DNA of 64,000 bases, taken from contig MFRA01000001.1 in assembly GCA_001783215.1 (NCBI GenBank), positions 62,161-126,160 on the forward strand. The letters run 5' to 3'. This DNA is from Candidatus Magasanikbacteria bacterium RIFOXYD1_FULL_40_23 (GTDB lineage: Bacteria > Patescibacteriota > Patescibacteriia > Magasanikbacterales > GWA2-37-8). The position numbers and the translations under genes are program-made. The notes beneath the pieces are model-generated. The model was not told where the DNA came from. It worked only from the letters and a program-made list of their open reading frames with translations, and searched no databases. Shown in pieces: positions 2,230 to 43,341 of the stretch (the first letter of the stretch is position 1; each line of letters starts with the position of its first letter).

Positions 2230-4239
2230 ATGTCAGAACCAAGTGAAAAAGTGTTAAATAGTCTGGGTAATCCCGAGATTAATTTTTTTGCATCTACAAA
2301 TTTTCGCAATAATAACAGAAAGTTTGGTATAAAACTCGACGATCGTCGCCGTCATATGTATGTAGTAGGCAAAACCGGCATGGGTAAAACTACTTTGCTA
2401 GAAAATATGGTGCTAAACGATATCTACGCAGGCCATGGTGTAGGCGTGGTAGATCCGCACGGAGATTTTGCCGAAAAAATCATTGATTATATTCCGCCAA
2501 ATCGTATAAACGATGTGGTGTATTTTAATCCTTCAGACATTGATTTTCCAATTGGCTTCAATATTCTAGAATCAATTGATCCGCGCTACCGTCATTTGGT
2601 AGCATCGGGTCTTATGGGTGTGTTCAAAAAAATCTGGCCAGATGTTTGGAGTGCTCGTATGGAATATATTTTAAACAACACTCTTTTGGCATTGCTAGAA
2701 TTTCCAAACACTACTCTGCTTGGTATAAACAGATTGCTGGCCGACGACGGTTATCGCAAGCGCGTGGTGCGAAACTTAAAAGATCCGGTAATCAAAGCTT
2801 TTTGGGAAACAGAATTTGCGGGTTATAACGATAGGTACAAGCAAGAAGCTGTGGCGCCGGTACAAAACAAAATCGGTCAATTTTTGTCCGCTTCAGTTAT
2901 TCGCAATATCGTGGCGCAAGTTAAATCGCGTATCAACATTCGCGAAATTATGGATAACAAAAAAATATTTATCATGAACTTGTCCAAAGGTAGAATCGGA
3001 GAAGATAATTCCAGATTGTTAGGCGGCATGTTGATTACCAAAATTCAGTTGGCCGCCATGGAAAGAGTAGATACTCCGGAGCGTGATCGTAAAGATTTTT
3101 TCTTATACGTAGACGAATTTCAAAACTTTGCTACCGAAAGTTTTTCTAACATCTTATCTGAAGCTCGTAAGTACCGATTAGATTTAACTATGGCTCACCA
3201 GTACATGGAGCAGTTAGATGAAACAGTTCTGGCTGCCGTTATTGGTAACGTAGGTACTTTGGTTACTTTTAGAGTTGGTTCTACCGATGCCGAAGTTTTA
3301 GCCAAAGAATTTGCTCCTACTTTTATAGAAACTGATTTGGTTAACTTAACCAAATTTCAAATTTATTTAAAACTCATGATAGACGGTGTGGCTTCGCAAC
3401 CTTTTTCTGCCAACACCTTGTCGCCAATTAATATTTCTACTCAAAGCACAGATAAGGTCATTAGAGTTTCTCGTGAACGCTATGCCACCAACCGCGAAAA
3501 CATAGAAGACAAAATCATGCGTTGGACTGGTATGGAAAACGGTGGAACTGGTGACACCGATGAAGACGAAGACGATAAGTTGGACCCAGATGAAAACTAT
3601 ACCCAAGACGAAGAGGGTATGCCGGTGCTTATAGAAAAAAAGATAGTACCATCTCCAGCTCCTAAACCAAAACCAGAACCTCCAAAATTATCAGTTGCCA
3701 AACACGATATTAAATCGAATAAGAATTTAGATATAAAACAAAGTCGTCCAGTATCGTTGGTTGATGCTACTCAAAAGGGGATCAGTCTTTCTCAGGCAAT
3801 GCCAACAAGTAAGTCGGGGCATTCAAGTTTTAGTTCTGGCAAAACAGATCAGAACAGAAAACCAAATGTTTCTAATAGCCATGGCGGCGGAAACAGAAGA
3901 AACGATCAAAGACCGGGAGGAGGAAGCCAAAGACCTTCAGGCCAGTTGCAACCAAGGCAATTTGTAGAAAGTAAACCGAAACCAGTTTCTGCATCGCTAA
4001 GCCAGACACCTTCAGTTATGCCAAACACGGCTCCTTCTGCGCCAGCCACACCCGCAGAAAACAAACCTATGGTAGAGCCTTCGCTATTGTTAGCAAAGCC
4101 ATTGTCTGAGCAGGTAGTTAATGTCTTGCCAGCTGTTAAGGATGAATCAGCGCAAGCCCCGGCGCTTTTGGTTAACCAAGAGCCAAAAACATCTGGTGGC
4201 AAGATGTTTCCAAGCAGAATAATAAAGATAGATGAGTAG
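2230..4239 (+). CDS. P-loop ATPase of TraD/TraG/VirD4 coupling-protein type with long Pro/Ser/Gly-rich low-complexity C-terminal tail
   Basis: Walker A VVGKTGMGKTT, Walker B FLYVDEFQNF, downstream TMAHQ motif typical of coupling-protein/AAA_10 family; last ~250 aa are S/P/G/Q-rich. Confidence 0.5.
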   Translation: MSEPSEKVLNSLGNPEINFFASTNFRNNNRKFGIKLDDRRRHMYVVGKTGMGKTTLLENMVLNDIYAGHGVGVVDPHGDFAEKIIDYIPPNRINDVVYFNPSDIDFPIGFNILESIDPRYRHLVASGLMGVFKKIWPDVWSARMEYILNNTLLALLEFPNTTLLGINRLLADDGYRKRVVRNLKDPVIKAFWETEFAGYNDRYKQEAVAPVQNKIGQFLSASVIRNIVAQVKSRINIREIMDNKKIFIMNLSKGRIGEDNSRLLGGMLITKIQLAAMERVDTPERDRKDFFLYVDEFQNFATESFSNILSEARKYRLDLTMAHQYMEQLDETVLAAVIGNVGTLVTFRVGSTDAEVLAKEFAPTFIETDLVNLTKFQIYLKLMIDGVASQPFSANTLSPINISTQSTDKVIRVSRERYATNRENIEDKIMRWTGMENGGTGDTDEDEDDKLDPDENYTQDEEGMPVLIEKKIVPSPAPKPKPEPPKLSVAKHDIKSNKNLDIKQSRPVSLVDATQKGISLSQAMPTSKSGHSSFSSGKTDQNRKPNVSNSHGGGNRRNDQRPGGGSQRPSGQLQPRQFVESKPKPVSASLSQTPSVMPNTAPSAPATPAENKPMVEPSLLLAKPLSEQVVNVLPAVKDESAQAPALLVNQEPKTSGGKMFPSRIIKIDE

Positions 4240-4296: not shown

Positions 4297-7200
4297 ATGG
4301 ATGAAAAGCGCAACATTGCTGAATCTCATTATTTTACTGTTGTGTTATTTTTTATACTTACACTTACCGTTACGATAATCGGTATCTTTTTTTCTATTAA
4401 GGTAATTCGTGGAGCGGAAATTATTAACTGGACTCAAACTGATTGGCAAAGTGGAGTAGATAGTGGTGTTATTGCGACCAGCGCTTCAAATCAAACTGGT
4501 TGGACACAGTATTCCAGTGTAACTAATCTTTCTGCTACTTCATCGCCTGGGGATTTAAAACTCGCCACTACAAGTTCTATCGCAACAGACGATGGAACCT
4601 TTAGTGCTACAGGTCTTGCCACAGGAGGTGGGTTAAGCAATGGCACAGTAGTGAGTACGACTGTTTCCGAAAGCGGTGCGGCTGCGAGTGTTCGGCTCGC
4701 AGTAAACGCAACGACATCGGTAAATATTTTTGATTCTACGATGCCACCGGTGCCCGGAACAGTTTCAACGGGTAGCGGCATGATTCGAAATGGTGATGAT
4801 GACGAGATTTATGTGATTCAACCTGGTACGGGCTTTCACAAATATTCTGTTTCCGGTAATTCTTGGACGACACTTGCTGTTGTGCCTGGCACTGTTGGTG
4901 CGGGCAGTGAAATGATTCGCAATGGCTCGGACAATGATATTTATCTTCTTCAAGGTGGTGGTACTGGCATTTATAAGTACTCTATTTCTGACAATTCTTG
5001 GACCACACTTACTGTTGTGCCTGGTACTATTGGTAACGGTGGCACCATGATTCGTAACGGTTCGAGCGATGATATATATGTGCTCCAAGGTGGCAATGCG
5101 ACTGGCTTTTATCGTTATTCCATTGCCAGTGATACTTGGAGTGCGTTAACAGTAGTGCCAGCCACAGTTAACACTGGTGGTACTATGATTCGTAATGGCT
5201 CAGATAACGACATTTACGTTCTAGAAGGTACTGGCAGTAGTGCGTTTTTTAGATATTCCATTTCCGATAACTCTTGGACAACGCTTACAGCTGCGCCAGC
5301 TGTCGCCGGCAATGGAGCTACCATGATTCGTAATGGCTCAGACGATAACTTTTACTTTATTCCCAGCTCTTCTGGGGGCAGTACCGCTTTTTACAGCTAC
5401 TCCATCGCCAGTAATACTTGGAGTACATTAACAGTAGTACCAGCCTTTCTTTCTGGTCCCGCTTCCATGTTTCGGAGTGGGTCGGATGATTATATATATC
5501 TATTTCAAGGTGCCGTCACCAGCGCGTTTTTTAGGTACTCCATTTCTGGCAATTCCTGGACTACACTCACGGCACTGCCTGGCAATACTACAGTCAGTGG
5601 CGTTATGGTTCGAAATGGTTTGGATGACCAAATTTATGTTCTGGCAGCTGCCGCTACCAACGGTTTTTTTAAGTATTCTGTTTCTGGTAATTCTTGGGAA
5701 GGTTCAGGGGTTAGTTCAATACCAGCAGTTCCTGGCGCAGTTGGCACAGGTAGCGCTATGATCCGTAATGGCGCTGATGACGATGTGTATGTGCTCCAAG
5801 GCGGCAGCGCAACTGGCTTCTATCATTTTTCCATTGCCAGTAATACTTGGAATACATTAACCGTCGTGCCAGCTTCGGTTTCTACAGGTGCTTCCATGAT
5901 TCGCAATGGTAGTGATGATAATATTTATGTGCTTACAGGCAATGGCACTGGTTTCTATAGTTATTCTATTTCTGGCAATTCTTGGGCAACGCTTACTGTC
6001 GTGCCAGCTTCGGTTTCTACAGGTGCTTCCATGATTCGCAATGGTAGTGATGATAATATTTATGTGCTTACAGGCAATGGCACTGGTTTCTATAGTTATT
6101 CTATTTCTGGCAATTCTTGGGCAACGCTTACTGTCGTGCCAGCTTCGGTTTCTACAGGTGCTTCCATGATTCGCAATGGTAGTGATAATAACATTTATGT
6201 TTTAAGAGGTGCTAGCACTGGTTTTTATAGTTATTCTATCTCTGACAATTCTTGGACGACACTTACTGTTGTACCTGCTTCAATTGGAAGCGGTTCTTCC
6301 ATGATTCGTAATGGTTCGGACGATAGTATTTATGTCCTTCGAGGGGGGAGTACTGGTTTCTATTCTTATTCCATTTCTGGCAATTCCTGGACAACGCTTA
6401 CTGTTGTACCTTCCACTGTCGGTGCGGGTGGTAGTATGATTCGCAATGGTTCGGATGATGATATTTATATTCTTCGAGGCAATACTAGTAATGCGTTTTA
6501 TCGGTATTCCATATCTGGCAATGCTTGGACTACGCTTGTTACCGTACCAGTAAGTGTTGCTGCGGGCTGCATCATGATGCGTAATGGTGCTGACCATGAG
6601 TTATATATACTTCAAGGAAATAGCACCTCTAGCCTTTGGCGTTATCTCATAAACACCACGACATATTCCACGTCTGGTACTTTTACTTCAGCAGTCATTG
6701 ATACGGCCGGTGCGGCAACTTTTGGAAACATTTCTTGGACATCAGCGCTTCCAGTGAGCACAACATTAACGTTTGCGACGCGCTCAGGTGCTACTGCCAG
6801 TCCTGATGGTACATGGTCGGACTGGAGTACAGAACTTTCCAATTCTGCTGGCAGTGCCATAGTTTCGCCTGTAGCGCGATATATTCAGTATCGCGGTACG
6901 TTCGGCACATCCAATACAGCCAAAACCCCAACTCTCAGTAATTTTTCTTTAGCTTATAGCGCATATCAGCTCACTGGAAATTTAGTGTCATCTGTTTTCA
7001 ATACTGGTGAAGTTGATAATATCATGGGGGGTATTTCATGGACAGAAGATGTTTCACTTCCCACCAGCACAACTGTTACTGTATCCTTACGTACCGCTGC
7101 TTCTGCCGACAGTTTGATTGGTTCTTGGGTAGATTTTACTAACACTATAACGAATTGTACCAAATCATCCAGTACGGTTTCTTGTACGATTGATGCTTTG

Positions 7201-8061
7201 CCAACGGCGTTTAAATCTGGGGATGATGATCAGTATTTTCAATATAAAATTACCCTAACTTCCCCAGATGGCGTTGCTTCTCCGTCTGTTGGTGGTGTTG
7301 TTTTGTCTTATACTCAGCTGGATGCTGCTAGCGCAAGCGCGGGTGTTGCTTTTCCGGTAAATCAACTTGTTATATTAATTCCAACCGCTTCTACTTCTAG
7401 TGGCTCTGCAACTTCAACGCAGGAACAGATCCGTTCAAAAATTATTGAGGATGAAGCTCTAATTTTAAAAATGGAAGAGGCTGGACAAAAAGTGCCGATA
7501 GCGCTAAATCTATCCGCAAGAGATTATAAGGGGTTGTTTACTAAAGTCTTTGCATTCGGCTCTAAGAATATCGAAGTAAAAACCTTGCAACAGTTTTTGA
7601 ATGTCGCTGGGTTTATTGTAGCAAAAATGGGGCCAGGATCTCCCGGGAATGAAACTATTTTCTTTGGTAAATTAACAGAAGCGGCGCTTGCGAAATTTCA
7701 AGTATTCAATGGCATTACTATTGCACAAGGGAAGTTGGATCTTGAGACGCGTATTTTTATTGAAAATCTTAGTGGTACAATGTTGCCACAGTTATCAAAC
7801 GATAGAGTCCTTTCTCCTATTTTTACTCGTGATTTAAAATTAAAAATGACAGGAGAGGATGTCCGTTATCTTCAGATGTTTTTAAACAGTAAAGGCTTTA
7901 TTGTTGCTCCGTATGGCCCAGGATCTCCCGGGAATGAAACTATTTTCTTTGGTAAATTAACAGAAGCGGCGCTTGCAAAATTTAAAGTCAAGAATGATCT
8001 GCAGCCTTCATCTGGCTATCTTGATTCTAATACCAGGTCATTTATCAAATCCTTGCGTTAA
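4297..8061 (+). CDS. giant cell-surface repeat protein: N-terminal membrane anchor, ~17 tandem 45-aa repeats, two C-terminal peptidoglycan-binding (PG_binding_1-like) modules
   Basis: TM segment FTVVLFFILTLTVTIIGIFF; repeats of pattern MIRNGSDDxIYVLxGxxTGFYxYSISxNSWTTLTVVPAxV; two copies of FLNxxGFIVAxxGPGSPGNETIFFGKLTEAALAKF near C-terminus. Confidence 0.7.
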   Translation: MDEKRNIAESHYFTVVLFFILTLTVTIIGIFFSIKVIRGAEIINWTQTDWQSGVDSGVIATSASNQTGWTQYSSVTNLSATSSPGDLKLATTSSIATDDGTFSATGLATGGGLSNGTVVSTTVSESGAAASVRLAVNATTSVNIFDSTMPPVPGTVSTGSGMIRNGDDDEIYVIQPGTGFHKYSVSGNSWTTLAVVPGTVGAGSEMIRNGSDNDIYLLQGGGTGIYKYSISDNSWTTLTVVPGTIGNGGTMIRNGSSDDIYVLQGGNATGFYRYSIASDTWSALTVVPATVNTGGTMIRNGSDNDIYVLEGTGSSAFFRYSISDNSWTTLTAAPAVAGNGATMIRNGSDDNFYFIPSSSGGSTAFYSYSIASNTWSTLTVVPAFLSGPASMFRSGSDDYIYLFQGAVTSAFFRYSISGNSWTTLTALPGNTTVSGVMVRNGLDDQIYVLAAAATNGFFKYSVSGNSWEGSGVSSIPAVPGAVGTGSAMIRNGADDDVYVLQGGSATGFYHFSIASNTWNTLTVVPASVSTGASMIRNGSDDNIYVLTGNGTGFYSYSISGNSWATLTVVPASVSTGASMIRNGSDDNIYVLTGNGTGFYSYSISGNSWATLTVVPASVSTGASMIRNGSDNNIYVLRGASTGFYSYSISDNSWTTLTVVPASIGSGSSMIRNGSDDSIYVLRGGSTGFYSYSISGNSWTTLTVVPSTVGAGGSMIRNGSDDDIYILRGNTSNAFYRYSISGNAWTTLVTVPVSVAAGCIMMRNGADHELYILQGNSTSSLWRYLINTTTYSTSGTFTSAVIDTAGAATFGNISWTSALPVSTTLTFATRSGATASPDGTWSDWSTELSNSAGSAIVSPVARYIQYRGTFGTSNTAKTPTLSNFSLAYSAYQLTGNLVSSVFNTGEVDNIMGGISWTEDVSLPTSTTVTVSLRTAASADSLIGSWVDFTNTITNCTKSSSTVSCTIDALPTAFKSGDDDQYFQYKITLTSPDGVASPSVGGVVLSYTQLDAASASAGVAFPVNQLVILIPTASTSSGSATSTQEQIRSKIIEDEALILKMEEAGQKVPIALNLSARDYKGLFTKVFAFGSKNIEVKTLQQFLNVAGFIVAKMGPGSPGNETIFFGKLTEAALAKFQVFNGITIAQGKLDLETRIFIENLSGTMLPQLSNDRVLSPIFTRDLKLKMTGEDVRYLQMFLNSKGFIVAPYGPGSPGNETIFFGKLTEAALAKFKVKNDLQPSSGYLDSNTRSFIKSLR
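5866..6135 (+). repeat. two perfectly identical tandem 135-bp units (45 codons each) inside the repeat-protein gene; a third unit continues with divergence
   Basis: 5866-6000 and 6001-6135 are identical base for base (gtgccagcttcggtttctacaggtgcttccatgattcgcaatgg...cttactgtc). Confidence 0.85.
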
Positions 8062-35199: not shown

Positions 35200-36060
35200 T
35201 TGTTTATGTTTGATACGCACTGCCATGTACAGTTTAATGGTTTTAAAGATGATGCTGAAGAGGTAATAAAAAAATGCGGTGACAAAAAAATGATTTTGAA
35301 TTTGGTTGGTACTCAAAAAGATACTAGTCGTGCCGGGGTAGAGATGGCCAACAAATTTCCGTTTACCTATGCCAGCATCGGGCTTCATCCAGTTCATCTT
35401 TTTTCTACTCATATAGACGAAGAAGAGAGTAAGTTTTTGTCGCGCGAAGAAACTTTTGATTATGAGTATTATAAAAATTTGGGACAGAGTAAAAAAGTAA
35501 TAGCAGTGGGGGAGTGTGGATTGGATTTATATAGATTACCAGAAGGACGAACAGTAGAAGAAGTGCTAGAAAAACAAAAAGAAACTTTTGCGTTGCAATA
35601 TAAATTGGCGCAAGAATTAAATGTGGCATTGGTAATTCATGTGCGAGAGGCGCACGAGCAGATGATAGAACTTTTGAAAAAACTTTCTAACAACGGTTCG
35701 GTGCGCGGAACGGTGCATTGTTATACCAGCAATTGGCATTTTGCCCAGCAGTATCTAGATATAGGTTTAAATATAGGTTTCACCGGTGTGATTACTTTTC
35801 CTCCAAGAAAAGCAGATCCACAAGCGCAAACAGATTTGCTAGAAGTAGTAAAAAATTGTCCGCTAGATAAAATAGTAGTAGAAACAGATGCGCCGTACTT
35901 GGCGCCGTTGCCATATAGAGGCCAAAGATGTGAACCGCAAATGGTGGAGCAAACCATTCGAAAAATTGCTCAATTAAAAAATATTTCCTTTGAAGAAGCG
36001 GAAAAAGCTACGACCGAAAACGCCAAAAAATTATTTAGAATTTCTTCTGAAAAAAATTGA
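35200..36060 (+). CDS. tatD: TatD-family metal-dependent DNase/hydrolase
   Basis: MFDTHCHVQF N-terminal HxH, GLHP, GECGLD, VIHVREA, ETDAPYL motifs. Confidence 0.9.
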   Translation: MFMFDTHCHVQFNGFKDDAEEVIKKCGDKKMILNLVGTQKDTSRAGVEMANKFPFTYASIGLHPVHLFSTHIDEEESKFLSREETFDYEYYKNLGQSKKVIAVGECGLDLYRLPEGRTVEEVLEKQKETFALQYKLAQELNVALVIHVREAHEQMIELLKKLSNNGSVRGTVHCYTSNWHFAQQYLDIGLNIGFTGVITFPPRKADPQAQTDLLEVVKNCPLDKIVVETDAPYLAPLPYRGQRCEPQMVEQTIRKIAQLKNISFEEAEKATTENAKKLFRISSEKN

Positions 36061-36111
36061 ACCCCGCACCGAACATCGGGCGAGGTAAAGCGTGGGTGTT
36101 GACCGCGAGAG

Positions 36112-36369
36112 TTATCGGGGTACACGCACCTTTTGGGGTCCGTACCTTCTACAGGCGATGTCTTCCTCGGTAATATCGTTGAGGTCGAATTCCATGGAAG
36201 GCGTAAAACCGCCGGTCATGCTAGTGAAGAAGTCCTCTAGCCACTGGTTGAATTCCTTGCCCAGGGACTGTAAGAACGCAATCGTCCAGTAGGTCAGCTC
36301 TTCTCCCAAGGAGCTGAGAGAATCTGACAATTCGTCAATCAACTTCTGAAACTCACTTTTCTTCTTCAT
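36112..36369 (-). CDS. small acidic protein (85 aa), G+C-rich island 2
   Basis: AGAGGA SD before ATG; upstream TTGACC promoter-like box (36420-36415); MKKKSEFQKLIDELSDSLSSLGEELTYW... Confidence 0.5.
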   Translation of the reverse strand: MKKKSEFQKLIDELSDSLSSLGEELTYWTIAFLQSLGKEFNQWLEDFFTSMTGGFTPSMEFDLNDITEEDIACRRYGPQKVRVPR

Positions 36370-36432
36370 GGGTTCCTCTTCCCAGTATTTAACCTATCAT
36401 ATTTTAGATTAGACGGTCAATTATATACAGTA

Positions 36433-36467
36433 ACAAAAAACACTCTGTATTATAGAGTGTTTTTTGT
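36433..36467. terminator. bidirectional intrinsic terminator (A-run / palindrome / T-run)
   Basis: aaaaaacactctgtattatagagtgttttttg: stem AACACTCT/AGAGTGTT flanked by A6 and T6. Confidence 0.65.
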
Positions 36468-36603
36468 TATCCGAGTGAGGTTATATGGCTGCAAATTTGT
36501 TCACCACCATCTTTCTAAAAGACAAGTTTTATCTCTAGAAAGATAGTGAGGTGGCGAACGAATGTTGCCAGGCTCACTGTTAAACGACGTTATAGTCGGA
36601 GGG

Positions 36604-36984
36604 CTAGAAGCCCAGTGTTGCGAGAGCCTGATCGGCTTCGTCGGGAGAGCAAGTGCCCATCCGTTGAGCGATCATGATCTGGCTCGCAACAGGTGTTGCT
36701 TGCGGCAACAATTCCTCGAGCACAGACCGGCGCAAAACCATGAGCGCTTGCAGAATCGAGAGTCGATCCAACAAGGGCAGGTTCTTCTGCTGGATGCGCA
36801 ACGCAAGGACCCGAAGGTCCATTGTGCCGAACAGTACCATGCAGGCTTCGTTGTGTGAGCGAAAGCTCGGGGACTGGAAACCCCCGGGCAGTTCGCGTAA
36901 ACTGCCATCCTGGCAGAGCTCCCCAGTAGCGAGGATGAACTGACCAGTGTGGCCGATGGGCTTGACGAAAACTCGCTCGTTCAT
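36604..36984 (-). CDS. small protein (126 aa), island 2 (start at MNERVFV)
   Basis: GGAGG 10 nt upstream of ATG; balanced composition unlike overlapping Arg/Ser-rich alternative frames; own promoter. Confidence 0.55.
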   Translation of the reverse strand: MNERVFVKPIGHTGQFILATGELCQDGSLRELPGGFQSPSFRSHNEACMVLFGTMDLRVLALRIQQKNLPLLDRLSILQALMVLRRSVLEELLPQATPVASQIMIAQRMGTCSPDEADQALATLGF

Positions 36985-37049
36985 AATGATGGCCTCCAAG
37001 CCTGGTTGAGAGAACGGTTTGTTCCCTCAGCGGGCAGAAAGAACGCGTT

Positions 37050-37109
37050 ATTTTGCCGAGGGAAAGGAAAAGACGATCTTTTCGTATGTTCTTTTCCCTG
37101 GCAAAAGGC
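37050..37109 (-). promoter_or_regulatory. conserved structured 5' UTR hairpin (UUUUGCCAGGG...CCCUCGGCAAAA), copy 1 of 3
   Basis: transcript reads ccttttgccagggaaaagaacatacgaaaagatcgtcttttcctttccctcggcaaaat; outer and inner inverted repeats; ~90 nt upstream of start codon. Confidence 0.55.
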
Positions 37110-37138
37110 GTTACTGCGTGGATTGTAAAGAGCTCTGT

Positions 37139-37167
37139 AATATAGGTTAAAATCTTGCCTTTGTCAA
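37139..37167 (-). promoter_or_regulatory. sigma70-like promoter TTGACA-17-TATATT for 36604-36984
   Basis: minus strand taTTGACAaaggcaagattttaaccTATATT. Confidence 0.55.
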
Positions 37168-37367
37168 TAGGCAAACCCACCACTCTATTTGGAAATATAC
37201 CACTGGGGATATATAATCAATATACACCTAAGATGTGCCTAAAGTTACAATCTATACAAAAAATCAAAAACAGCCTTATCTAAAGCTGTTTTTTAATGGC
37301 GACGTCGTGGTATGCACGACGTCGGCGAGTCGTAATTCTTCTAAACCCGTATCATCAGTCCTGTGGA

Positions 37368-37634
37368 CTAGATGATCTCGAGTTCGACCCTCTCGTACTT
37401 GATTCCCGGATGGGTGGGCTCGTCCCAGTCGAAGTATAGCTCATACACCGCTTCGTCAACGGCAGCAGCGATCTCTTCTGGTGTTCCCAACAACATCGGC
37501 ATGGAGTCGTTGTCGTTTGCAGTCTCCTCGGTTTGAGGAGTGCTTCCGTTGTCTTCTAGAGACTGACCACGTTGATGGGTCATCAGCACGGATTCTGCAA
37601 GTGCGAGGAACTGCGGATCTTCAGGACGAATCAT
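37368..37634 (-). CDS. small acidic protein (88 aa), island 2
   Basis: AGGAG SD; MIRPEDPQFLALAESVLMTHQRGQSLEDNG...; own promoter. Confidence 0.5.
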   Translation of the reverse strand: MIRPEDPQFLALAESVLMTHQRGQSLEDNGSTPQTEETANDNDSMPMLLGTPEEIAAAVDEAVYELYFDWDEPTHPGIKYERVELEII

Positions 37635-37714
37635 TCAGTAGCTCCTAGGAGAGTGGGGTTTATCAATACGAGACGACGCGCAAGTTTGGTTGCGGTGTCT
37701 CATTATGACCAAAA

Positions 37715-37743
37715 ACCATACCATAAAATGTTGTTAAAGTCAA
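37715..37743 (-). promoter_or_regulatory. sigma70-like promoter TTGACT-17-TATGGT for 37368-37634
   Basis: minus strand cTTGACTttaacaacattttatggTATGGT. Confidence 0.5.
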
Positions 37744-37770
37744 GAGCGTAGGGTAGAAAATGATTAAAAT

Positions 37771-37817
37771 AAAAAAAGCCTCGCTTTCGCAAGGCGTCGC
37801 CGTGTATTTTGTTTTTT
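37771..37817. terminator. bidirectional intrinsic terminator
   Basis: aaaaaaagcctcgctttcgcaaggcg...tattttgttttttgg: hairpin GCCTCGC/GCAAGGC with A-run and T-run flanks. Confidence 0.55.
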
Positions 37818-37824
37818 GGCTGTT

Positions 37825-38184
37825 TTAGCCAACAATTATGGATCGCTTGACCCGATTTTCCGTAAGGTAATCAATCACTTCGGAAAGGTCTGGGTTGCTG
37901 TTTCGGATATCTCTGAAACGTGTGTTGAGCAGAGACTTTTTTCCAAAGATAGATCTTGCATACGGCAATCCATTTTGGACTATTCTCTTGACGTCGAAAC
38001 GTCTATCTTTGTTCGGCCCTTCGAAGATAACGACAGTTTCGTCATCTTCGACGATTACAGAGCAGCTCCAATCTTCTTCGCCCACCAACAGATGTGGTGG
38101 ACCAGAATCATCTTTGGGCGGTTCAAGTTTTAGCACGAGCAGGTTGATGCTGCGGAGCAAACCCATGATATGTTGTACCGTCAT
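37825..38184 (-). CDS. small protein (119 aa), island 2
   Basis: GGTGAGG SD; promoter TTGAAA-17-TATATT upstream; plus-strand overlapping ORF lacks signals. Confidence 0.5.
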   Translation of the reverse strand: MTVQHIMGLLRSINLLVLKLEPPKDDSGPPHLLVGEEDWSCSVIVEDDETVVIFEGPNKDRRFDVKRIVQNGLPYARSIFGKKSLLNTRFRDIRNSNPDLSEVIDYLTENRVKRSIIVG

Positions 38185-38217
38185 GGTGCCTCACCCTTTG
38201 GTTGTTTAGTATAGACG

Positions 38218-38246
38218 AATATACCACCAAACCTTTATTTTTTCAA
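38218..38246 (-). promoter_or_regulatory. sigma70-like promoter TTGAAA-17-TATATT for 37825-38184
   Basis: minus strand gcTTGAAAaaataaaggtttggtggTATATT. Confidence 0.5.
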
Positions 38247-38312
38247 GCTAAATTTACAACGTCACTCTTTAGCGGATGTTGCGTGGTATAACTTAATTAA
38301 GTCAAAAAAAAG

Positions 38313-38362
38313 ACCTCGTATTGAAGTTGCCTTGGGGGCTATTCAATACGAGGCTGAACGTC
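38313..38362 (-). terminator. intrinsic terminator of 38403-38798
   Basis: 12-bp stem CCTCGTATTGAA/TTCAATACGAGG with 16-nt loop, T8 on minus strand. Confidence 0.65.
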
Positions 38363-38402
38363 TTGGTCTGCTTTGCGACTGATGTCGCTGGTAGAACCTA
38401 GT

Positions 38403-38798
38403 CTACTGCTGAGCGGTGTTGCGGGGGTACAAGTAGATGTAGCACCCCGTGTCGTGCGAGTCGACCGCGTAGCCGGTCTGGTCCTTCTCGGCCTCGAGGC
38501 GGAGCTCGACGTTGGTCGGCAGGCTGCGGACGATCGCGTTGATCTCCTTGTTGGCCTTGGCGCAGGGGATGCGGCCGAGGCGAGCGCGGAGCTCGAGGTC
38601 CTGGATCTCCTTGATCGCGGCCTTGAGCTGCTTCTTGCTGATGCTCTTGGCAGCCGCGGCGCGCACGGGCTTCTTCTCGTTGGTGTCGTTCGCCTTCGAG
38701 ACGAAGCCGGCGTCGGCGTGGGCCGTGCTGATGCCGAGGTCGAACAGGGCGATGAAGCCGACGGTCAGGGCGATGGCGATGATGGCGATGCGGGTCAT
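38403..38798 (-). CDS. small secreted protein (131 aa, signal peptide), island 2
   Basis: MTRIAIIAIALTVGFIALFDLGISTAHA signal-peptide-like N-terminus; GAGGAG SD; lysine/alanine-rich mature part. Confidence 0.55.
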   Translation of the reverse strand: MTRIAIIAIALTVGFIALFDLGISTAHADAGFVSKANDTNEKKPVRAAAAKSISKKQLKAAIKEIQDLELRARLGRIPCAKANKEINAIVRSLPTNVELRLEAEKDQTGYAVDSHDTGCYIYLYPRNTAQQ

Positions 38799-38857
38799 GG
38801 GACTCTCCTCGGTAACGGGTTCGTAACGTTAACTGCTTGCCGGCGCACAAAGGTGTG

Positions 38858-38914
38858 CTTTTGTGCCGGGGAAGTGAAAGTGTAGCCTCTACACTCCCTT
38901 TTCCCTGGCAAAAC
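38858..38914 (-). promoter_or_regulatory. conserved structured 5' UTR hairpin, copy 2 of 3
   Basis: transcript reads cgttttgccagggaaaagggagtgtagaggctacactttcacttccccggcacaaaag; same outer arms UUUUGCCAGGG/CCCCGGCA.AAAA. Confidence 0.55.
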
Positions 38915-38945
38915 GCAAACAGTTATTATTAAAGATCAACAGACA

Positions 38946-38974
38946 ACTATACCATAAAACTAGGACTTTGTCAA
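38946..38974 (-). promoter_or_regulatory. sigma70-like promoter TTGACA-17-TATAGT for 38403-38798
   Basis: minus strand ccTTGACAaagtcctagttttatggTATAGT. Confidence 0.55.
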
Positions 38975-39040
38975 GGGGTTGATTTGGCGAAATCACGTCG
39001 CGTAGCGTCCATTGAACGCGACGTTTGGCTAATTTTAGGC

Positions 39041-39084
39041 AAAAAAACAGCGCTACCTACACCTAGTTGGTGAGTGGTAGCGCC
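39041..39084 (-). terminator. intrinsic terminator of 39116-39529
   Basis: minus strand gcgctaccactcaccaactaggtgtaggtagcgc then tgttttttt. Confidence 0.55.
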
Positions 39085-39115
39085 TGCGTTGGTACGGCTC
39101 TAGTCGCAGTTGCGA

Positions 39116-39529
39116 CTATGGCCAGATAAGTGGAATGTCCATGCTGGGGTAGATGGCCTCCAGGGTGTAGAGGTCCATGTCCATCACGGACAGGTACCAC
39201 TCGAAGTCGAAGAGTTCGACGGAAGTCGTGGGAGGGTTAGCATCCCACCAAGCACAGTTGCCAAACCGCCACCTTCGCAGAGCTTCGTAGTACTCCGCTT
39301 CCAGCTCGACAAGCTTGTCTCGACAAGCTTGGCTAGTCGTGCCGCCGATATAGCGACAGGTAAGCTTTGGGTATTGGAGCTGGCTCTCGGCGAGGGTGTA
39401 TCGCTGCTTCAGCTTCTTGCACGTATCGTAGTCGTACGTGCCCGAGGGTGGCGTATCGGCATAGGCCGTGCCGACGTTCGGCAGCAGCATGCCCAGAGCA
39501 ATACACATCGCGATCAGGATCTTCACCAT
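39116..39529 (-). CDS. small secreted Cys-containing protein (137 aa), island 2 (start at MVKILIAM)
   Basis: GGAGAG SD before internal Met; MVKILIAMCIALGMLLPNVGTAYA signal peptide; four Cys in mature part. Confidence 0.55.
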   Translation of the reverse strand: MVKILIAMCIALGMLLPNVGTAYADTPPSGTYDYDTCKKLKQRYTLAESQLQYPKLTCRYIGGTTSQACRDKLVELEAEYYEALRRWRFGNCAWWDANPPTTSVELFDFEWYLSVMDMDLYTLEAIYPSMDIPLIWP

Positions 39530-39564
39530 TTCTCTGTCTCTCCAATTTCTTCTGTGACGGTTGA

Positions 39565-39619
39565 TTTTTACCAAGACGAAAGAAGCTACGAATTTCGCAT
39601 ATTCTTTTATCTCGGTAAA
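39565..39619 (-). promoter_or_regulatory. conserved structured 5' UTR hairpin, copy 3 of 3 (with compensatory ACC:GGU for GCC:GGC)
   Basis: transcript reads ctttaccgagataaaagaatatgcgaaattcgtagcttctttcgtcttggtaaaaat. Confidence 0.55.
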
Positions 39620-39652
39620 GAGCAGACCGCTTGGTTAAATGAGCGATTCGCC

Positions 39653-39682
39653 ATCTTATATTAAAAAATGCCTTTTGTCAAT
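39653..39682 (-). promoter_or_regulatory. sigma70-like promoter TTGACA-17-TAAGAT for 39116-39529
   Basis: minus strand taTTGACAaaaggcattttttaataTAAGAT. Confidence 0.45.
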
Positions 39683-39699
39683 AGTCGGACTAGTAGATC

Positions 39700-40010
39700 A
39701 TTTTCAAAAATCCTTGATTTTACTTTGATTTACATGTAAAATAATCGCGTTCTTACCATTTTGTATAGCTTAACCACTTCGCGTATGGAACAGGAATAAT
39801 TACAAAATCTTCCAGTCGTGATTACCAGATTTTGTCCTTTAAAATCATCGAAAGTTTTGGTGCTTCTATTGCAGTACCAGTGGTAAGATTTGTTCTAATC
39901 GGTCAATACTTTGATAAAAAATATAACTTATAACCGTTGTTTACTGTTATAGCCTTTGTGCTGGCCGCTGCCACCACTCAAAACGCAAAAAAACTATTTA
40001 GTAAAATGAT
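39700..40010 (+). pseudogene. decayed duplicate of atp-operon promoter plus atpZ/atpI-like gene (direct repeat of 43355-43660)
   Basis: ~85% identical by eye to 43355-43660 including TTGA(t/c)T promoter; reading frame broken: atggaacaggaaTAA after 4 codons and second in-frame TAA where intact copy has LSP. Confidence 0.7.
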
Positions 40011-40023
40011 GTTATAATTAAGT

Positions 40024-40854
40024 ATGAATGAAATAAAACACGGAATGGATCCGGAGACTGCTCGAGAAGAGGGAAGAAAATCTGTTCGTGAAACGCTAGC
40101 GCATACGTTAGGGTTTATTGCTCAGCGCATAGATGCGGAAGGGTTAGATTCGCTAGAGGACGATGCGGTTAAAGCTTTGTGTAGTTATAGAATGGGAGAT
40201 GCGCTTAGGGTGGAAGTTGAGATTCCAAAATCAATAAGGAAGTTTTTTGCAGAACGAAAAGATTTTTCCGTTTTAAAAAAAGTTTTAGAAGACACAACCG
40301 AAACGATGAATAAAATTATCTCCAATCCCGATATCTTTGTTACTGGTACTTCTGATTCAGAAGAACAGAAAATAATTAATAAACAACTTGTTACAGAACG
40401 CGACCAGGCTGAAAGTTTGTATAGAGTATTGGTTTGGAAAGCTGTGCTGCACCATCTTGCTCCTACAGATATTGCTGGTTTTACAGAATTTTGTGAATGT
40501 ATAGAGCGTTATGATGCAATGCTTGTGTCGCGAGGTATAACACGTAAGGCAGCCTCTAGCTTGCTTGGAAACCGCTTTTTCTTATTGGAAAAATCGCAAA
40601 GTTGGGTAGAAAAATTGTCGCACCCGGAAGGTGCGAAAAATCGGCCATTTTCTGAAGCTGAACCGAACTTAGAGAGTGTGAGCAACTATATTGTTGATGG
40701 TAATTCCGCTGAATGGGTCGAGGGCTATGCCGCTCAGAATGTTCAATTTAAAACAGATTTAATAGAAAAGATCCATTCTTTTATAGATATTAATGAAGAG
40801 GTAAGTGTACGGGCTAGTGAATGGTTAAAAAATCAGCAGTCGCTAGAAAATTAA
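40024..40854 (+). CDS. hypothetical protein (276 aa), cassette gene 1
   Basis: hydrophilic ORF, no motif assigned. Confidence 0.5.
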   Translation: MNEIKHGMDPETAREEGRKSVRETLAHTLGFIAQRIDAEGLDSLEDDAVKALCSYRMGDALRVEVEIPKSIRKFFAERKDFSVLKKVLEDTTETMNKIISNPDIFVTGTSDSEEQKIINKQLVTERDQAESLYRVLVWKAVLHHLAPTDIAGFTEFCECIERYDAMLVSRGITRKAASSLLGNRFFLLEKSQSWVEKLSHPEGAKNRPFSEAEPNLESVSNYIVDGNSAEWVEGYAAQNVQFKTDLIEKIHSFIDINEEVSVRASEWLKNQQSLEN

Positions 40855-40858
40855 ATAA

Positions 40859-41806
40859 TTAGTTTGTTATATCATCTTCTTTATCAAAAGAAAATTGACC
40901 ATCAGGACAGTTGAAAAGTTTATCAAATAGTAGGCGGGGATCAGGGTATTTTGTTATTACACTATGGAAGGCTTGTGCAATCTCATTCCCTCCATCATTT
41001 TCTGCACTTTGCTCTCCAGCAGTATGGTTTGAAGGAAGCAGGTCTTCAAATTCCTCTAACTGACGTAGCGTTTCGGTAGACAACTCCGGCGGGTAATGTA
41101 TGTTATAATCATATAGTCTCTGGCTAGCGGCAAAGCTTTCCATTGCGTCTTCGGGAGATTCGCCCGGTTCAAGGTTTATTGTAGCGGTTATATTTCCGTT
41201 TTTTACCGCTTGGGTTGATTTATTATCTGCAATTATTTCCAATTCTTTACGGCGTGCTTCTGGAACAAGTTTCATGTAGTGTGCGGGAATCTCAACGCTA
41301 GAAGCGTACTGCACTATTTGATTTTCTAAAAAAATAACAAATGTATCGCGAGCTACAGTCAAAATATCTTTATTATTACTACGGTATTCTAGGAGTAAAT
41401 ATGCCCTTTGAGGCAGTAGCTGTTCTACTATTACCGATAAGGCAGTACGCTGAAATCCGGGAAGTTTTTCCCATATTCCTTTTAGTGCAGCTTCATTTAT
41501 TTTAATTTTTTCGATCGGGGTCCAGTCTGGATTAAAGTTGTTTCGTACACCCTCGAGACTATATAATAGTAACATAGCTACAAAAGCCGGTAAATCTCTT
41601 GCGGTGGCCATTAAATTTTTATCCTCTAGTACTCGTAAGTATTGTGCTTCGGCAGGGGTTAGTGGTTTTTGGTTTTCTACAGCAAGCATCTTTTCGTATT
41701 CATCAACTAAACTGTTGTAAGCTTTTTTTGACTCTGGAGATAGGATAAGTTCTAAGGATGGTTCATCGGCCGTCAGTGCGTCAAAATGGTGTCTTTGATT
41801 ATCCAT
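40859..41806 (-). CDS. hypothetical protein (315 aa), cassette gene 2, convergent with gene 1
   Basis: hydrophilic acidic ORF on minus strand, stops 5 nt from gene-1 stop. Confidence 0.5.
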   Translation of the reverse strand: MDNQRHHFDALTADEPSLELILSPESKKAYNSLVDEYEKMLAVENQKPLTPAEAQYLRVLEDKNLMATARDLPAFVAMLLLYSLEGVRNNFNPDWTPIEKIKINEAALKGIWEKLPGFQRTALSVIVEQLLPQRAYLLLEYRSNNKDILTVARDTFVIFLENQIVQYASSVEIPAHYMKLVPEARRKELEIIADNKSTQAVKNGNITATINLEPGESPEDAMESFAASQRLYDYNIHYPPELSTETLRQLEEFEDLLPSNHTAGEQSAENDGGNEIAQAFHSVITKYPDPRLLFDKLFNCPDGQFSFDKEDDITN

Positions 41807-41960
41807 AAATCAAATTTAATTTAAAAACTTATTAATATACTAACATCTTAATTCTAAGACAGTCAATTCAAGCTTTTATTTAGTTGATTTTTCTATTAAA
41901 AAGGGCTAAACTTTCCATGTCCCCACCTTTAATTTATAAGATTTTATTTAATATAATAGT

Positions 41961-42440
41961 ATGGCCGAGCATTTTGAAGGCGGTTATCATTCAAAAGAAG
42001 AACCGACAACAGTCGAAGTAGATCAAGACGAAGAATGGAAGTTTGCTTCGGCCCCAGCCGTTATTGAAACAACAGGGCTTGGTCCTTGCTTTGGTATAAT
42101 TATTTATGATCCCGAAAGCAAGTCTGCCTTTCTCGGGCATTTTGTTGACCCCCGTACAAATGGTTTTGATGGCATGCTAGCAGAAGCTAAAAAACATTTC
42201 AAAGATTTTACCAATTTGCAGGCATATGTTGGTGGAGGTGAACCAAATCCCGACGATGCTCCCTATTTTAAAGAAGACAAAGCCAAAAGAACCTTTGTAA
42301 AAAACAAGTTACTTCAAAGCGGGTTTAACAAGGAGAAGCTCAAAATTAAATATCAGGACTCAAACCAAAGTACGATTTTAAGAATTGATACGGTTACTGG
42401 AAACGTAGATTGGGACACCGAAGACGAGGATAACTATTGA
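41961..42440 (+). CDS. CheD-like (glutamine deamidase fold) protein, cassette gene 3
   Basis: TTGLGPCFGIIIYDPESKSAFLGHFVDP matches CheD catalytic-Cys block (T.LGSCV.V.LYDP....GG..H.MLP); 159 aa = CheD size; TATAAT ends 3 nt before ATG (possibly leaderless). Confidence 0.45.
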   Translation: MAEHFEGGYHSKEEPTTVEVDQDEEWKFASAPAVIETTGLGPCFGIIIYDPESKSAFLGHFVDPRTNGFDGMLAEAKKHFKDFTNLQAYVGGGEPNPDDAPYFKEDKAKRTFVKNKLLQSGFNKEKLKIKYQDSNQSTILRIDTVTGNVDWDTEDEDNY

Positions 42441-42501
42441 CACCTCTTAAATGTTCCACTACCCAGAATAAACGATTTTTTATTATTTAAATTTTATTTA
42501 T

Positions 42502-43341
42502 ATGGGAGAACGAAGGAAAAACCCCTCAGAAGCAGTGGGTGCTGGTAAAAAAGAAAAACATGAATTTAAGTTTAAGGAATTAAGCGAGGAAGAAAGATAT
42601 GATGAAGCGAAAAAAAACGCTCGTATGGTTCTCAAAGAACTTGCTCCGGCAGGTTCTACCGATGATACTCAGGTGGCATATCACTGGAACGAACACGACT
42701 TTGATTCCAATCCGAAAATAGCAACTATTGGAGAATTGCGTATAATGATAGAGCACATGGAAGATTGTAATGCGGGAGGGCCAGGGTATCCTGGTATGCG
42801 TTTTACTATTTCTCATTTAAGTGTGGGGGATGAATTTGTAAGGCGTGAACGCGTGGTATCTTTTTGTCGTGAGGCTAGGTTAAAAAATTTATCCAAATGG
42901 GGTCCGTTAGAAGACGACGCTGTTATTTGGGTAACCACCACGAAACGCCCGCAACCAAGGAAAACAATAGTGAGAGAGTGGTTGGGAATGTTGGGAAAAT
43001 TAGATTACGCTGCTGCAGAAGCAGATAACGAAATGGGAGGGGAACACATTGTTTCTATTGATCCAAATTTTGATCCAAAAAAATGGGACGAGGAAAACCG
43101 TAGAGAACAGGTTGGAATGATACAAAAGGTAATTGATGCTGTAGAAAACCGGGGCCGATTGTTAGAAGGGTTAGAAGCAAGAAAAGACAAGTCTCTAGTA
43201 CGCCTTTTTTTTCCTAAGACTGGCGAGAGTATCACTCTAACGCCTAAAAAAATGCGTTTACATATTCAGTCATTATCACGTGGTGTTCTTGAAGACCAGG
43301 AGCCAATTTTTACCGACGTCTATGCATCTGAGGATAATTAA
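42502..43341 (+). CDS. hypothetical protein (279 aa), cassette gene 4
   Basis: hydrophilic ORF, no motif assigned. Confidence 0.5.
   Translation: MGERRKNPSEAVGAGKKEKHEFKFKELSEEERYDEAKKNARMVLKELAPAGSTDDTQVAYHWNEHDFDSNPKIATIGELRIMIEHMEDCNAGGPGYPGMRFTISHLSVGDEFVRRERVVSFCREARLKNLSKWGPLEDDAVIWVTTTKRPQPRKTIVREWLGMLGKLDYAAAEADNEMGGEHIVSIDPNFDPKKWDEENRREQVGMIQKVIDAVENRGRLLEGLEARKDKSLVRLFFPKTGESITLTPKKMRLHIQSLSRGVLEDQEPIFTDVYASEDN

Follow-up and report, generated by a model that had tools for sequence, protein, structure and literature searches.

A covarying stem-loop in the 5' leaders of three orphan genes of a Candidatus Magasanikbacteria genome

Introduction

Stem-loops in the untranslated leaders of bacterial mRNAs are known both as processing sites and as stabilizers. 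Substrates of RNase III, such as phage T7 R1.1 and those in the Escherichia coli pnp and rnc leaders, are imperfect helices of two turns or more (>20 bp) with few mismatches and a variable loop. The stabilizers in the leaders of E. coli ompA, Bacillus subtilis aprE and ermC are stable hairpins that begin within a few nucleotides (nt) of the 5' end of a monocistronic mRNA. Here we analyze a hairpin shared by the leaders of three genes in a 64,000-nt stretch of the genome of Candidatus Magasanikbacteria bacterium RIFOXYD1_FULL_40_23 (contig MFRA01000001.1, positions 62,161 to 126,160), hereafter the window. The hairpin, first noted in a preliminary description of the sequence, is confined in the window to an island of six small genes.

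The island hairpin resembles the RNase III sites in its imperfect helix of two turns or more, its location in an untranslated leader, its variable loop and its tolerance of mismatches and bulges, and its size range matches theirs. The likeness is one of anatomy alone, with no sequence similarity; moreover, the T7 sites lie between the genes of one long transcript, whereas each island gene has its own promoter. With the stabilizers it shares a predicted place near the 5' end of a monocistronic mRNA that is set relative to the transcription start. However, its helix (24-26 bp) is much longer than theirs and would begin about 25 nt into the transcript, so that trimming would be needed. The cis-regulatory leaders and riboswitches of Rfam are likewise conserved, covarying 5' leader structures, but the island hairpin has neither a multi-helix aptamer nor an expression platform. 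By type it is a stem-loop of 5' leaders, and no described family includes it. The promoter region in which it is embedded is comparable to the putative mobile promoters, in that homologous promoter regions precede non-homologous genes both within one genome (leaders A, B and C below) and on another contig (leader D, contig L017) (PMC3488235). The definition of Matus-Garcia et al. (2012) calls for at least 80% identity over 50-100 nt (PMC3488235); the island regions fall short of it at about 67%, and their structure is kept by compensatory change.

Three hairpins in the leaders of island genes

The preliminary description placed three leader elements of the same architecture upstream of 36604-36984, 38403-38798 and 39116-39529. 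These are the correct open reading frames (ORFs), here called genes A, B and C, and the three hairpins were found where they had been described, read on the minus strand:

37051-37106, minus strand: hairpin A, in the leader of the gene for a 126-amino-acid (aa) protein; UUUUGCCAGGGAAAAGAA...UUCCUUUCCCUCGGCAAAA
38860-38913, minus strand: hairpin B, in the leader of the gene for a 131-aa secreted-looking protein; UUUUGCCAGGGAAAAGGG...UUCACUUCCCCGGCACAAA
39565-39620, minus strand: hairpin C, in the leader of the gene for a 137-aa secreted-looking protein; CUUUACCGAGAUAAAAGAA...UUCUUUCGUCUUGGUAAAA

Each hairpin is located between a near-consensus promoter and a Shine-Dalgarno (SD) sequence with its ATG, and there is hardly any doubt that the regions bearing the hairpins are 5' leaders. 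For the distance to the start codon, given earlier as about 90-110 nt, a small correction is made here: the ATG is 91-122 nt from the 5' base of the hairpin and 37-66 nt from its 3' base.

Folding showed that each hairpin is one long imperfect helix of about 55 nt, with 24-26 base pairs and 1-4 mismatches or bulges. The minimum free energies (MFE) of 81-nt segments were -27.9, -30.6 and -30.1 kcal/mol for A, B and C, with z-scores against shuffled sequence of -5.4, -4.9 and -6.5, respectively; none of 200 shuffles folded equally well, and the hairpin was retained in the MFE fold of each complete leader. On both strands UUUU precedes the hairpin and AAAA follows it, and the two tracts pair together. 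A covariance-model search of the window, as had been suggested, returned these three copies only (A, 61.4 bits at 37045-37111; B, 57.3 bits; C, 56.7 bits), the next best match being a terminator at 16 bits. The paralogous leaders are about 60-70% identical, and the sole identical core of A and B is a segment of 16-19 nt (TTTTGCCAGGGAAAAG; the common exact 16-mer is also written UUUUGCCAGGGAAAAG), which occurs exactly twice in the window, in these two hairpins.

Diverged copies of the island and a fourth leader type

A search of 5.8 billion proteins returned four homologs of protein B and five of protein C, one of the latter being the window's own protein. The contigs of these homologs, from five other metagenomes, bear diverged copies of the island with the same gene order and 65-82% amino-acid identity. 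Contig L001 carries the whole island, in the order C-B-g119-g88-A-g85 (the g genes are listed below), and L002, L003, L004, L046 and L047 carry parts of it. Near-identical copies (0-2 differences) are present in Rifle-type groundwater assemblies. In L001 the g119 ortholog (1488-1625) has a stop after 45 codons and is either a pseudogene or the product of an assembly error.

Collections of genomes, metagenomes and viral contigs were also scanned with a pattern that required both arms (TTTTGCCAGGGNAAAG..CCC..GGCA). The scan gave 18 stretches from a set with one genome per species and 19 from Joint Genome Institute (JGI) metagenomes; by inspection and the covariance model, only that on contig L017 was genuine, the others being chance matches in coding DNA of unrelated taxa. 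L025, L032, L035 and L037, which had looked promising by GC content, were rejected at only about 10 bits, and viral contigs gave no match to either the A/B-type or the C-type pattern. These scans therefore added one true copy of the hairpin.

This copy defines a fourth leader type, D, at 2407-2457 of L017 (CAZLNR010000004.1), where the same promoter and hairpin precede an unrelated gene (2503-2883). The product of gene D has 126 aa and a signal-peptide-like N-terminus, and the GC content at third codon positions (GC3) of the gene is 0.88. Proteins A, B, C and D show no mutual homology except for a marginal 23-residue stretch between C and D. L017 has a GC content of about 40% and is labelled 'uncultured Gammaproteobacteria'; from a reading of its sequence, our impression is that it may instead resemble Candidate Phyla Radiation (CPR) contigs. 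The same contig carries a second GC-rich small minus-strand gene at about 1690-1945, with a consensus promoter and a short hairpin abutting the ATG, and a tRNA-like stretch with a long minus-strand ORF at about 5965-7530.

Compensatory changes maintain the helix

A structural alignment of 13 sequences, covering the four leader types and six further contigs, was built by hand with gaps written as N; because it was fitted to the structure, the pairing and covariation figures drawn from it lean towards the structure. Over the 26-pair helix, 87.8% of the cells pair; sliding the 3' partners by 1-3 columns lowers this to 41.6-54.8%. Changes on both sides were found in 10 of the 26 pairs (41 cells involved), and the covariation score was 0.368, against 0.194 ± 0.017 in shuffles, none of which (0/500) reached the observed score. 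An unguided run of MAFFT and RNAalifold on 11 copies, the latter program having been proposed in the preliminary description, yielded 14 predicted pairs, of which 9 had changed on both sides. Both this run and the slid controls speak for a real pairing effect, in agreement with the original view of a conserved, covarying leader structure. The exchange of GCC:GGC for ACC:GGU at the base of the stem, noted at that time, is also real: of the 13 structurally aligned sequences, 8 have G-C there and 5 have A-U.

The best evidence for selection is provided by compensatory changes within orthologs. In type A, ACGA/UCGU became GCGA/UCGC in the L001 ortholog (A-U to G-C). In type B, the apical stem GUGUAG/CUACAC became GUUUAA/UUAAAC in L002 and L004 by two double changes. 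Among the five type C orthologs, U-A was replaced by C-G and G-C by A-U, with C·A, G·U and A·C intermediates persisting in single genomes; where the window copy has an A·C mismatch, L001 has a repaired G-C pair and three others have A-U. Noncoding island DNA is 66-80% identical between the window and L001 despite synonymous divergences (dS) of 1.0-4.8 in neighboring island genes, which indicates that the leaders as a whole are constrained. These results support the conclusion that the hairpin is under selection and is not a decaying duplicate.

A promoter-hairpin module with fixed spacing

Near-consensus promoters were found upstream of the three hairpins; scores are matches to the sigma-70 consensus out of 12.

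37139-37167, minus strand: promoter of unit A, TTGACA-17-TATATT, 11/12; hairpin base 32 nt past the -10 hexamer
38946-38974, minus strand: promoter of unit B, TTGACA-17-TATAGT with TG before the -10, 11/12; hairpin 32 nt on
39653-39681, minus strand: promoter of unit C, TTGACA-17-TAAGAT (or TATAAG shifted by 2), 10/12; hairpin 32 nt on

The distance from the -10 hexamer to the hairpin base is 31-33 nt in 12 of the 13 leaders and 24 nt in leader C of L001, whereas that from the 3' base of the hairpin to the ATG varies among leaders from 34 to 66 nt. The fixed promoter spacing and variable ATG spacing link the hairpin to the transcript's 5' end, as opposed to the ribosome-binding site. From the promoter consensus, a start about 25 nt from the helix base is predicted.

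Alignment of the upstream regions revealed that the likeness of A, B and C is not limited to the hairpin but spans a whole module of about 125 nt, consisting of TTGACAAA, a 17-nt spacer with TTTTA, a TATAxT -10 hexamer, an AU-rich leader stretch of about 32 nt and the hairpin. Across A, B, C and D, the module can be aligned from the -35 through the hairpin with a mean column identity of 67%, and it precedes at least four genes without detectable mutual homology. Such a pattern, which is that of putative mobile promoters (PMC3488235), raises the question of whether the hairpin has any function of its own or is a palindrome passively inherited with a duplicated or recruited promoter region; the preliminary description had likewise envisaged a duplicated promoter remnant free of structural constraint. 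We regard this as the least probable of the readings considered here, with little claim to acceptance. Pairing is far above the slid controls and is kept at 88% in spite of the divergence of the paralogous leaders, the double substitutions occur both within and between leader types, and neutral sites of the neighboring genes are saturated (dS 1-4.8). The hairpin is kept by compensatory changes in copies that are only about 67% identical, so the modules are of old date and under constraint and do not represent recent copying.

Beyond its hairpin, the B leader contains long segments that are invariant in five diverged genomes (38915-38945 and 38800-38860, minus strand). The 5' segment reads UGUYUGUUGAUCUUUAAUAAUAAC and the post-hairpin segment GUGCGCCGGCAAGCAG(U)UUAACGYUACGAACC. 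A possible outer helix would turn this leader into a three-way junction, but it is without covariation support.

Known classes of leader element

The preliminary description did not recognize the element as a known riboswitch class, and comparison with Rfam bore this out. No match to any of the 4227 models of Rfam 15 was obtained in the whole window at the gathering threshold, and at E<=5 in 35900-39800 the sole overlap with a hairpin was MIR408, on the opposite strand and at chance level (16 bits, against a gathering threshold of 64). Of the candidates named at the outset, a riboswitch is not borne out: the helix is nearly continuous, its loops and mismatch positions vary, and we found no conserved ligand pocket, multi-helix aptamer, conserved unpaired nucleotides or expression platform. 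An RNA thermometer (ROSE or fourU type) was discarded too, as the SD and AUG lie outside the hairpin, which ends 34-66 nt before the ATG and whose folding energy of -20 to -34 kcal/mol makes it far too stable. The two other candidates, a protein-binding operator and an RNase processing site, are taken up below. An attenuator platform was rejected because an A-tract and not a U-tract follows the hairpin, with no terminator or SD-sequestering helix downstream. Nor is the hairpin an intrinsic terminator; it was not called by the terminator scan, UUUU precedes it and AAAA follows it, and the island's real terminators are U-tailed.

Two types of DNA repeat were also rejected. The hairpin base, TTTTRCC/GGYAAAA, has no R''/R' core sites (RYYYAAC ... 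GTTRRRY) of an integron attC site and lies 5' of genes with promoters of their own. Dispersed repeats of the repetitive extragenic palindrome (REP) or MITE (miniature inverted-repeat transposable element) kind do not fit three copies per 64 kb, all in the same place of a leader.

A conformational switch, whether riboswitch, thermometer or attenuator, could also operate if the 3' arm paired alternatively with a segment further downstream that mimics the 5' arm. Such segments, UGCCcgcuGAGGGAA and UGCUGAGG, do pair with the 3' arm above shuffles in types A and D (z -3.5, -2.3 and -2.0), and the long invariant flanks and possible three-way junction of the B leaders would suit a switch. However, the alternative pairing was significant in none of five B and none of five C leaders and was rejected as a general feature, and a hairpin of this stability would outcompete the alternatives. 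The conserved 5' motif (gCUCUUUaa, anti-SD-like) paired with the translation initiation region or SD no better than shuffles. Together with the A-tract after the hairpin, the canonical U-tailed terminators elsewhere in the island, the lack of conserved unpaired nucleotides and the Rfam result, these findings make a switch very unlikely.

Proposed role and its alternatives

The hairpin exists, is maintained by compensatory change and keeps a nearly fixed spacing from the promoter, and it has the features of neither a switch nor a terminator. Our tentative reading, to which we assign a probability of about 0.45, is that it is a stem-loop acting in cis to set transcript fate, through mRNA processing or stability, and does not sense a signal. 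The hairpin would be transcribed in the 5' leader of three of six single-gene units. By one route, a double-strand-specific endonuclease of the RNase III type would cut the two-turn helix; the 24-26 pairs compare with the approximately 20 bp or more of double-stranded RNA that defines such substrates. By the other route, 5'-to-3' decay or trimming of the single-stranded 5' end of about 25 nt would stall at the helix base and leave a protected mRNA. Either route could give the hairpin-bearing genes a common level of expression. We infer that the hairpin is transcribed and that the sense RNA is the active molecule, as well as the kind of enzyme that would act on it. The long helix, its fixed spacing from the start, the apical drift and the presence of the hairpin in unrelated monocistronic mRNAs fit a determinant of transcript fate.

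A second type of leader hairpin occurs in the island:

37655-37705, minus strand: hairpin upstream of the 88-aa gene, MFE -22 kcal/mol, z -3.1, unrelated in sequence to hairpins A, B and C

It has a counterpart at the same place in L001 (1966-2010) with a different sequence. An unrelated hairpin at a similar place in this leader fits a generic structural role.

Several points weigh against the transcript-fate reading. Both the transcription start and, with it, the hairpin's 5' position are predictions from the promoter consensus, and the approximately 25 nt before the helix put it too far from the 5' end for a classical 5'-terminal protective stem-loop unless trimming takes place beforehand. 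General Pfam scans of 40 window ORFs, the six island genes and all large scanned ORFs among them, with no dedicated search, found none of RNase III, J or Y. With only four leader types, the covariation events are few and phylogenetically linked. G·U wobbles (20 cells) are no more frequent than A·C mismatches (19 cells), and the sense and antisense strands fold equally well, so that sequence alone does not prove the sense RNA to be the selected molecule; selection on the sense RNA would be expected to favor G·U. Finally, the conserved lower stem, UUUURCC...GGYAAAA with AAAG/UUC above it, could equally mean that a protein recognizes the sequence.

This last point leads to the main rival, according to which the hairpin is an operator for a dedicated RNA-binding regulator, possibly one of the cytoplasmic island proteins, that reads the lower stem and controls a small regulon. 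In the lower stem, UUUURCC/GGYAAAA, AG, AAAG and UUC are invariant or almost invariant across the four leader types, so that primary sequence is conserved and not pairing alone. The apical stem and loop drift freely, with the loops AAAGA, AAAUA, AGG, AAG, AAA, ACC, ACCU, AAU, AAC and AAGUA among the copies. At 7-8 bp above the base, the helix repeatedly shows an imperfection, which is a bulged C in types A and D, A·C in B and G·U in C, and the module sits before non-homologous genes. However, no candidate RNA-binding protein was found, the island proteins match no family, and the conserved sequence may reflect common descent of the module. The positions of the imperfections also vary, and type D and three C orthologs form almost perfect helices. 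We consider an operator doubtful, although it is the alternative to be taken most seriously.

The equal wobble counts and folding energies speak for another alternative, that the selected structure is one of DNA or of both strands: a cruciform or single-stranded DNA hairpin serving as a site for protein binding, recombination or replication beside the promoter, or an operator with distant inverted half-sites. The covariance model also scores the plus strand, at 25-41 bits, and the island genes run head-on to the strong plus-strand bias of the window. Nevertheless, covariation over 26 pairs with a variable upper stem is unlike the evolution of a duplex-DNA operator. No integrase, recombinase or transposase was found beside the island among the scanned ORFs, attC core sites are lacking, the cassettes have their own promoters, and only three copies exist, always in the same place of the leader. 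The order and content of the island are, in addition, stable in the diverged L001 and L002. A DNA-level role is thus distinctly unlikely.

Genes and proteins of the island

The window has a GC content of about 38%, with nearly all genes on the plus strand, and includes the core genes for alanyl-tRNA synthetase (AlaRS), ribosomal protein S4, RpoA, the ATP synthase operon, MreB/C, PBP2, GreA and lysyl-tRNA synthetase (LysRS). The island is flanked by TatD (35200-36060) on one side and, on the other, by four orphan genes located ahead of the atp operon. Its features are as follows:

36112-39700, minus strand: whole island, six monocistronic GC-rich orphan genes, each with a promoter and a terminator of its own, separated by AT-rich intergenic DNA
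36112-36369, minus strand: g85, 85 aa
36604-36984, minus strand: gene A, 126 aa, orphan, no signal peptide, GC3 0.69; SD GGAGG at 36993-36997
37368-37634, minus strand: g88, 88 aa
37825-38184, minus strand: g119, 119 aa
38403-38798, minus strand: gene B, 131 aa, signal-peptide-like N-terminus ending AHA-D, GC3 0.98; SD GAGGAG at 38805-38810
39116-39529, minus strand: gene C, 137 aa, Cys-rich, signal-peptide-like N-terminus ending AYA-D, GC3 0.75; SD GGAGAGA at 39537-39543

A scan found promoter-like sites for five of the six genes, four of them scoring 10-11/12 and that of g85 weaker (TTGACC-18-TAGGTT). Three U-tailed terminators in the island were called by the terminator scan and others were read from the sequence. 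Between genes A and g85, at 36431-36469, there is a near-perfect 19-nt palindrome (TAACAAAAAACACTCTGTA / TATAGAGTGTTTTTTGTTA) with A-tract and T-tract flanks, which resembles a bidirectional terminator and is conserved in L001 at 3135-3175. The four orphan genes between the island and atpI/atp operon (40024-43341; 276, 315, 159 and 279 aa) have normal GC3, and in L002, L046 and L047 the island directly adjoins atpI, with the boundary sequence AAGAACGCGAYTATTTTACAT in common.

None of the six island proteins matched Pfam, PHROG, PADLOC or NCBIfam, and the four that were searched against PDB sequences gave no match. Protein C is 100% identical to A2563_01595 of NCBI, from Candidatus Magasanikbacteria bacterium RIFOXYD1_FULL_40; together with the near-identical groundwater copies of the island, this places the host among the CPR bacteria. 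AlphaFold models of C and B are helical, with predicted local distance difference test (pLDDT) scores of 65 and 59, respectively, and that of C had no significant fold match in PDB. An exhaustive HMMER search with protein A returned itself and one weak match to a leucine-rich-repeat (LRR) protein of 947 aa, each of whose repeats, about 58 residues long, is similar to residues 27-86 of A (30-33% identity; E 2.5e-4 library-wide). On this weak evidence, protein A might be a single LRR unit of the ribonuclease-inhibitor type. Although B, C and D, all secreted-looking, are unrelated in sequence, their signal-peptide-like N-termini have similar ends (STAHA-D, GTAYA-D and QSAYA-D). A blastn search for a phage or plasmid origin of the island gave no match.

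Public gene calls in the island are inconsistent. Those for B (38398-38850) are wrong, picking either a 150-aa ORF in a different frame or one of 167 aa on the opposite strand; because wrong ORFs are chosen in GC-rich genes, the real B protein is unrecorded for this genome. For A (36590-37183), a 197-aa ORF in another frame is called in L042 and the 126-aa ORF in L043 and L045.

Codon bias and divergence of the hairpin-bearing genes

The island surroundings are odder than the hairpin itself, with GC3 up to 0.98 in a genome near 0.30. Scanned host genes in and around the island flanks have a GC3 of 0.27-0.34, compared with 0.98, 0.88, 0.75 and 0.69 for genes B, D, C and A. The bias is kept in all orthologs, with values of 0.92-0.98 for those of B in five other metagenomes, and the intergenic DNA remains AT-rich.

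Between the window and L001, dS was lowest for B (0.2), followed by C (0.63), A (1.0), g88 (1.6), g85 (1.66) and g119 (at least 2). Within this one pair of genomes, synonymous divergence differs more than tenfold between adjacent island genes, and B lies 5-20 times below neighboring island genes. The ratio of nonsynonymous to synonymous divergence (dN/dS) was 0.4-0.9 for B and 0.31 for A (L001 ortholog). The low dS of B points either to constraint on its synonymous sites or to recent exchange of the gene. No lineage of high GC content stands out as a donor, and each homolog of B or C with an examined contig lies in the same island context. The maintained GC3, the uneven dS and the lack of a visible donor suggest that selection or a biased process acts on the synonymous sites of the hairpin-bearing genes.

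Implications for CPR bacteria

Members of the CPR (Patescibacteria) are mostly uncultivated, and almost nothing is known of how they control expression post-transcriptionally. A leader structure that is supported by covariation, absent from Rfam and joined to a reusable promoter module and an orphan-gene island of extreme, maintained codon bias provides a handle on RNA processing in this group. Should mRNA stabilization be its sole role, the hairpin would be an element of ordinary kind whose host is unusual; the anomalous GC3 of the cargo genes is the part that could lead to something new. One unlikely possibility is that the promoter-hairpin module is a portable expression cassette for fast-evolving, GC-rich orphan genes for small secreted proteins in the CPR, whose mRNAs would themselves be under selection, and that the hairpin serves as a handle for a dedicated stabilizing, localizing or processing factor. 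Selection on the mRNAs would be in line with the GC3 of up to 0.98, the low synonymous divergence of gene B and the conserved noncoding DNA. If so, these genes would give rise to very stable, highly structured transcripts, possibly linked to the episymbiotic lifestyle.

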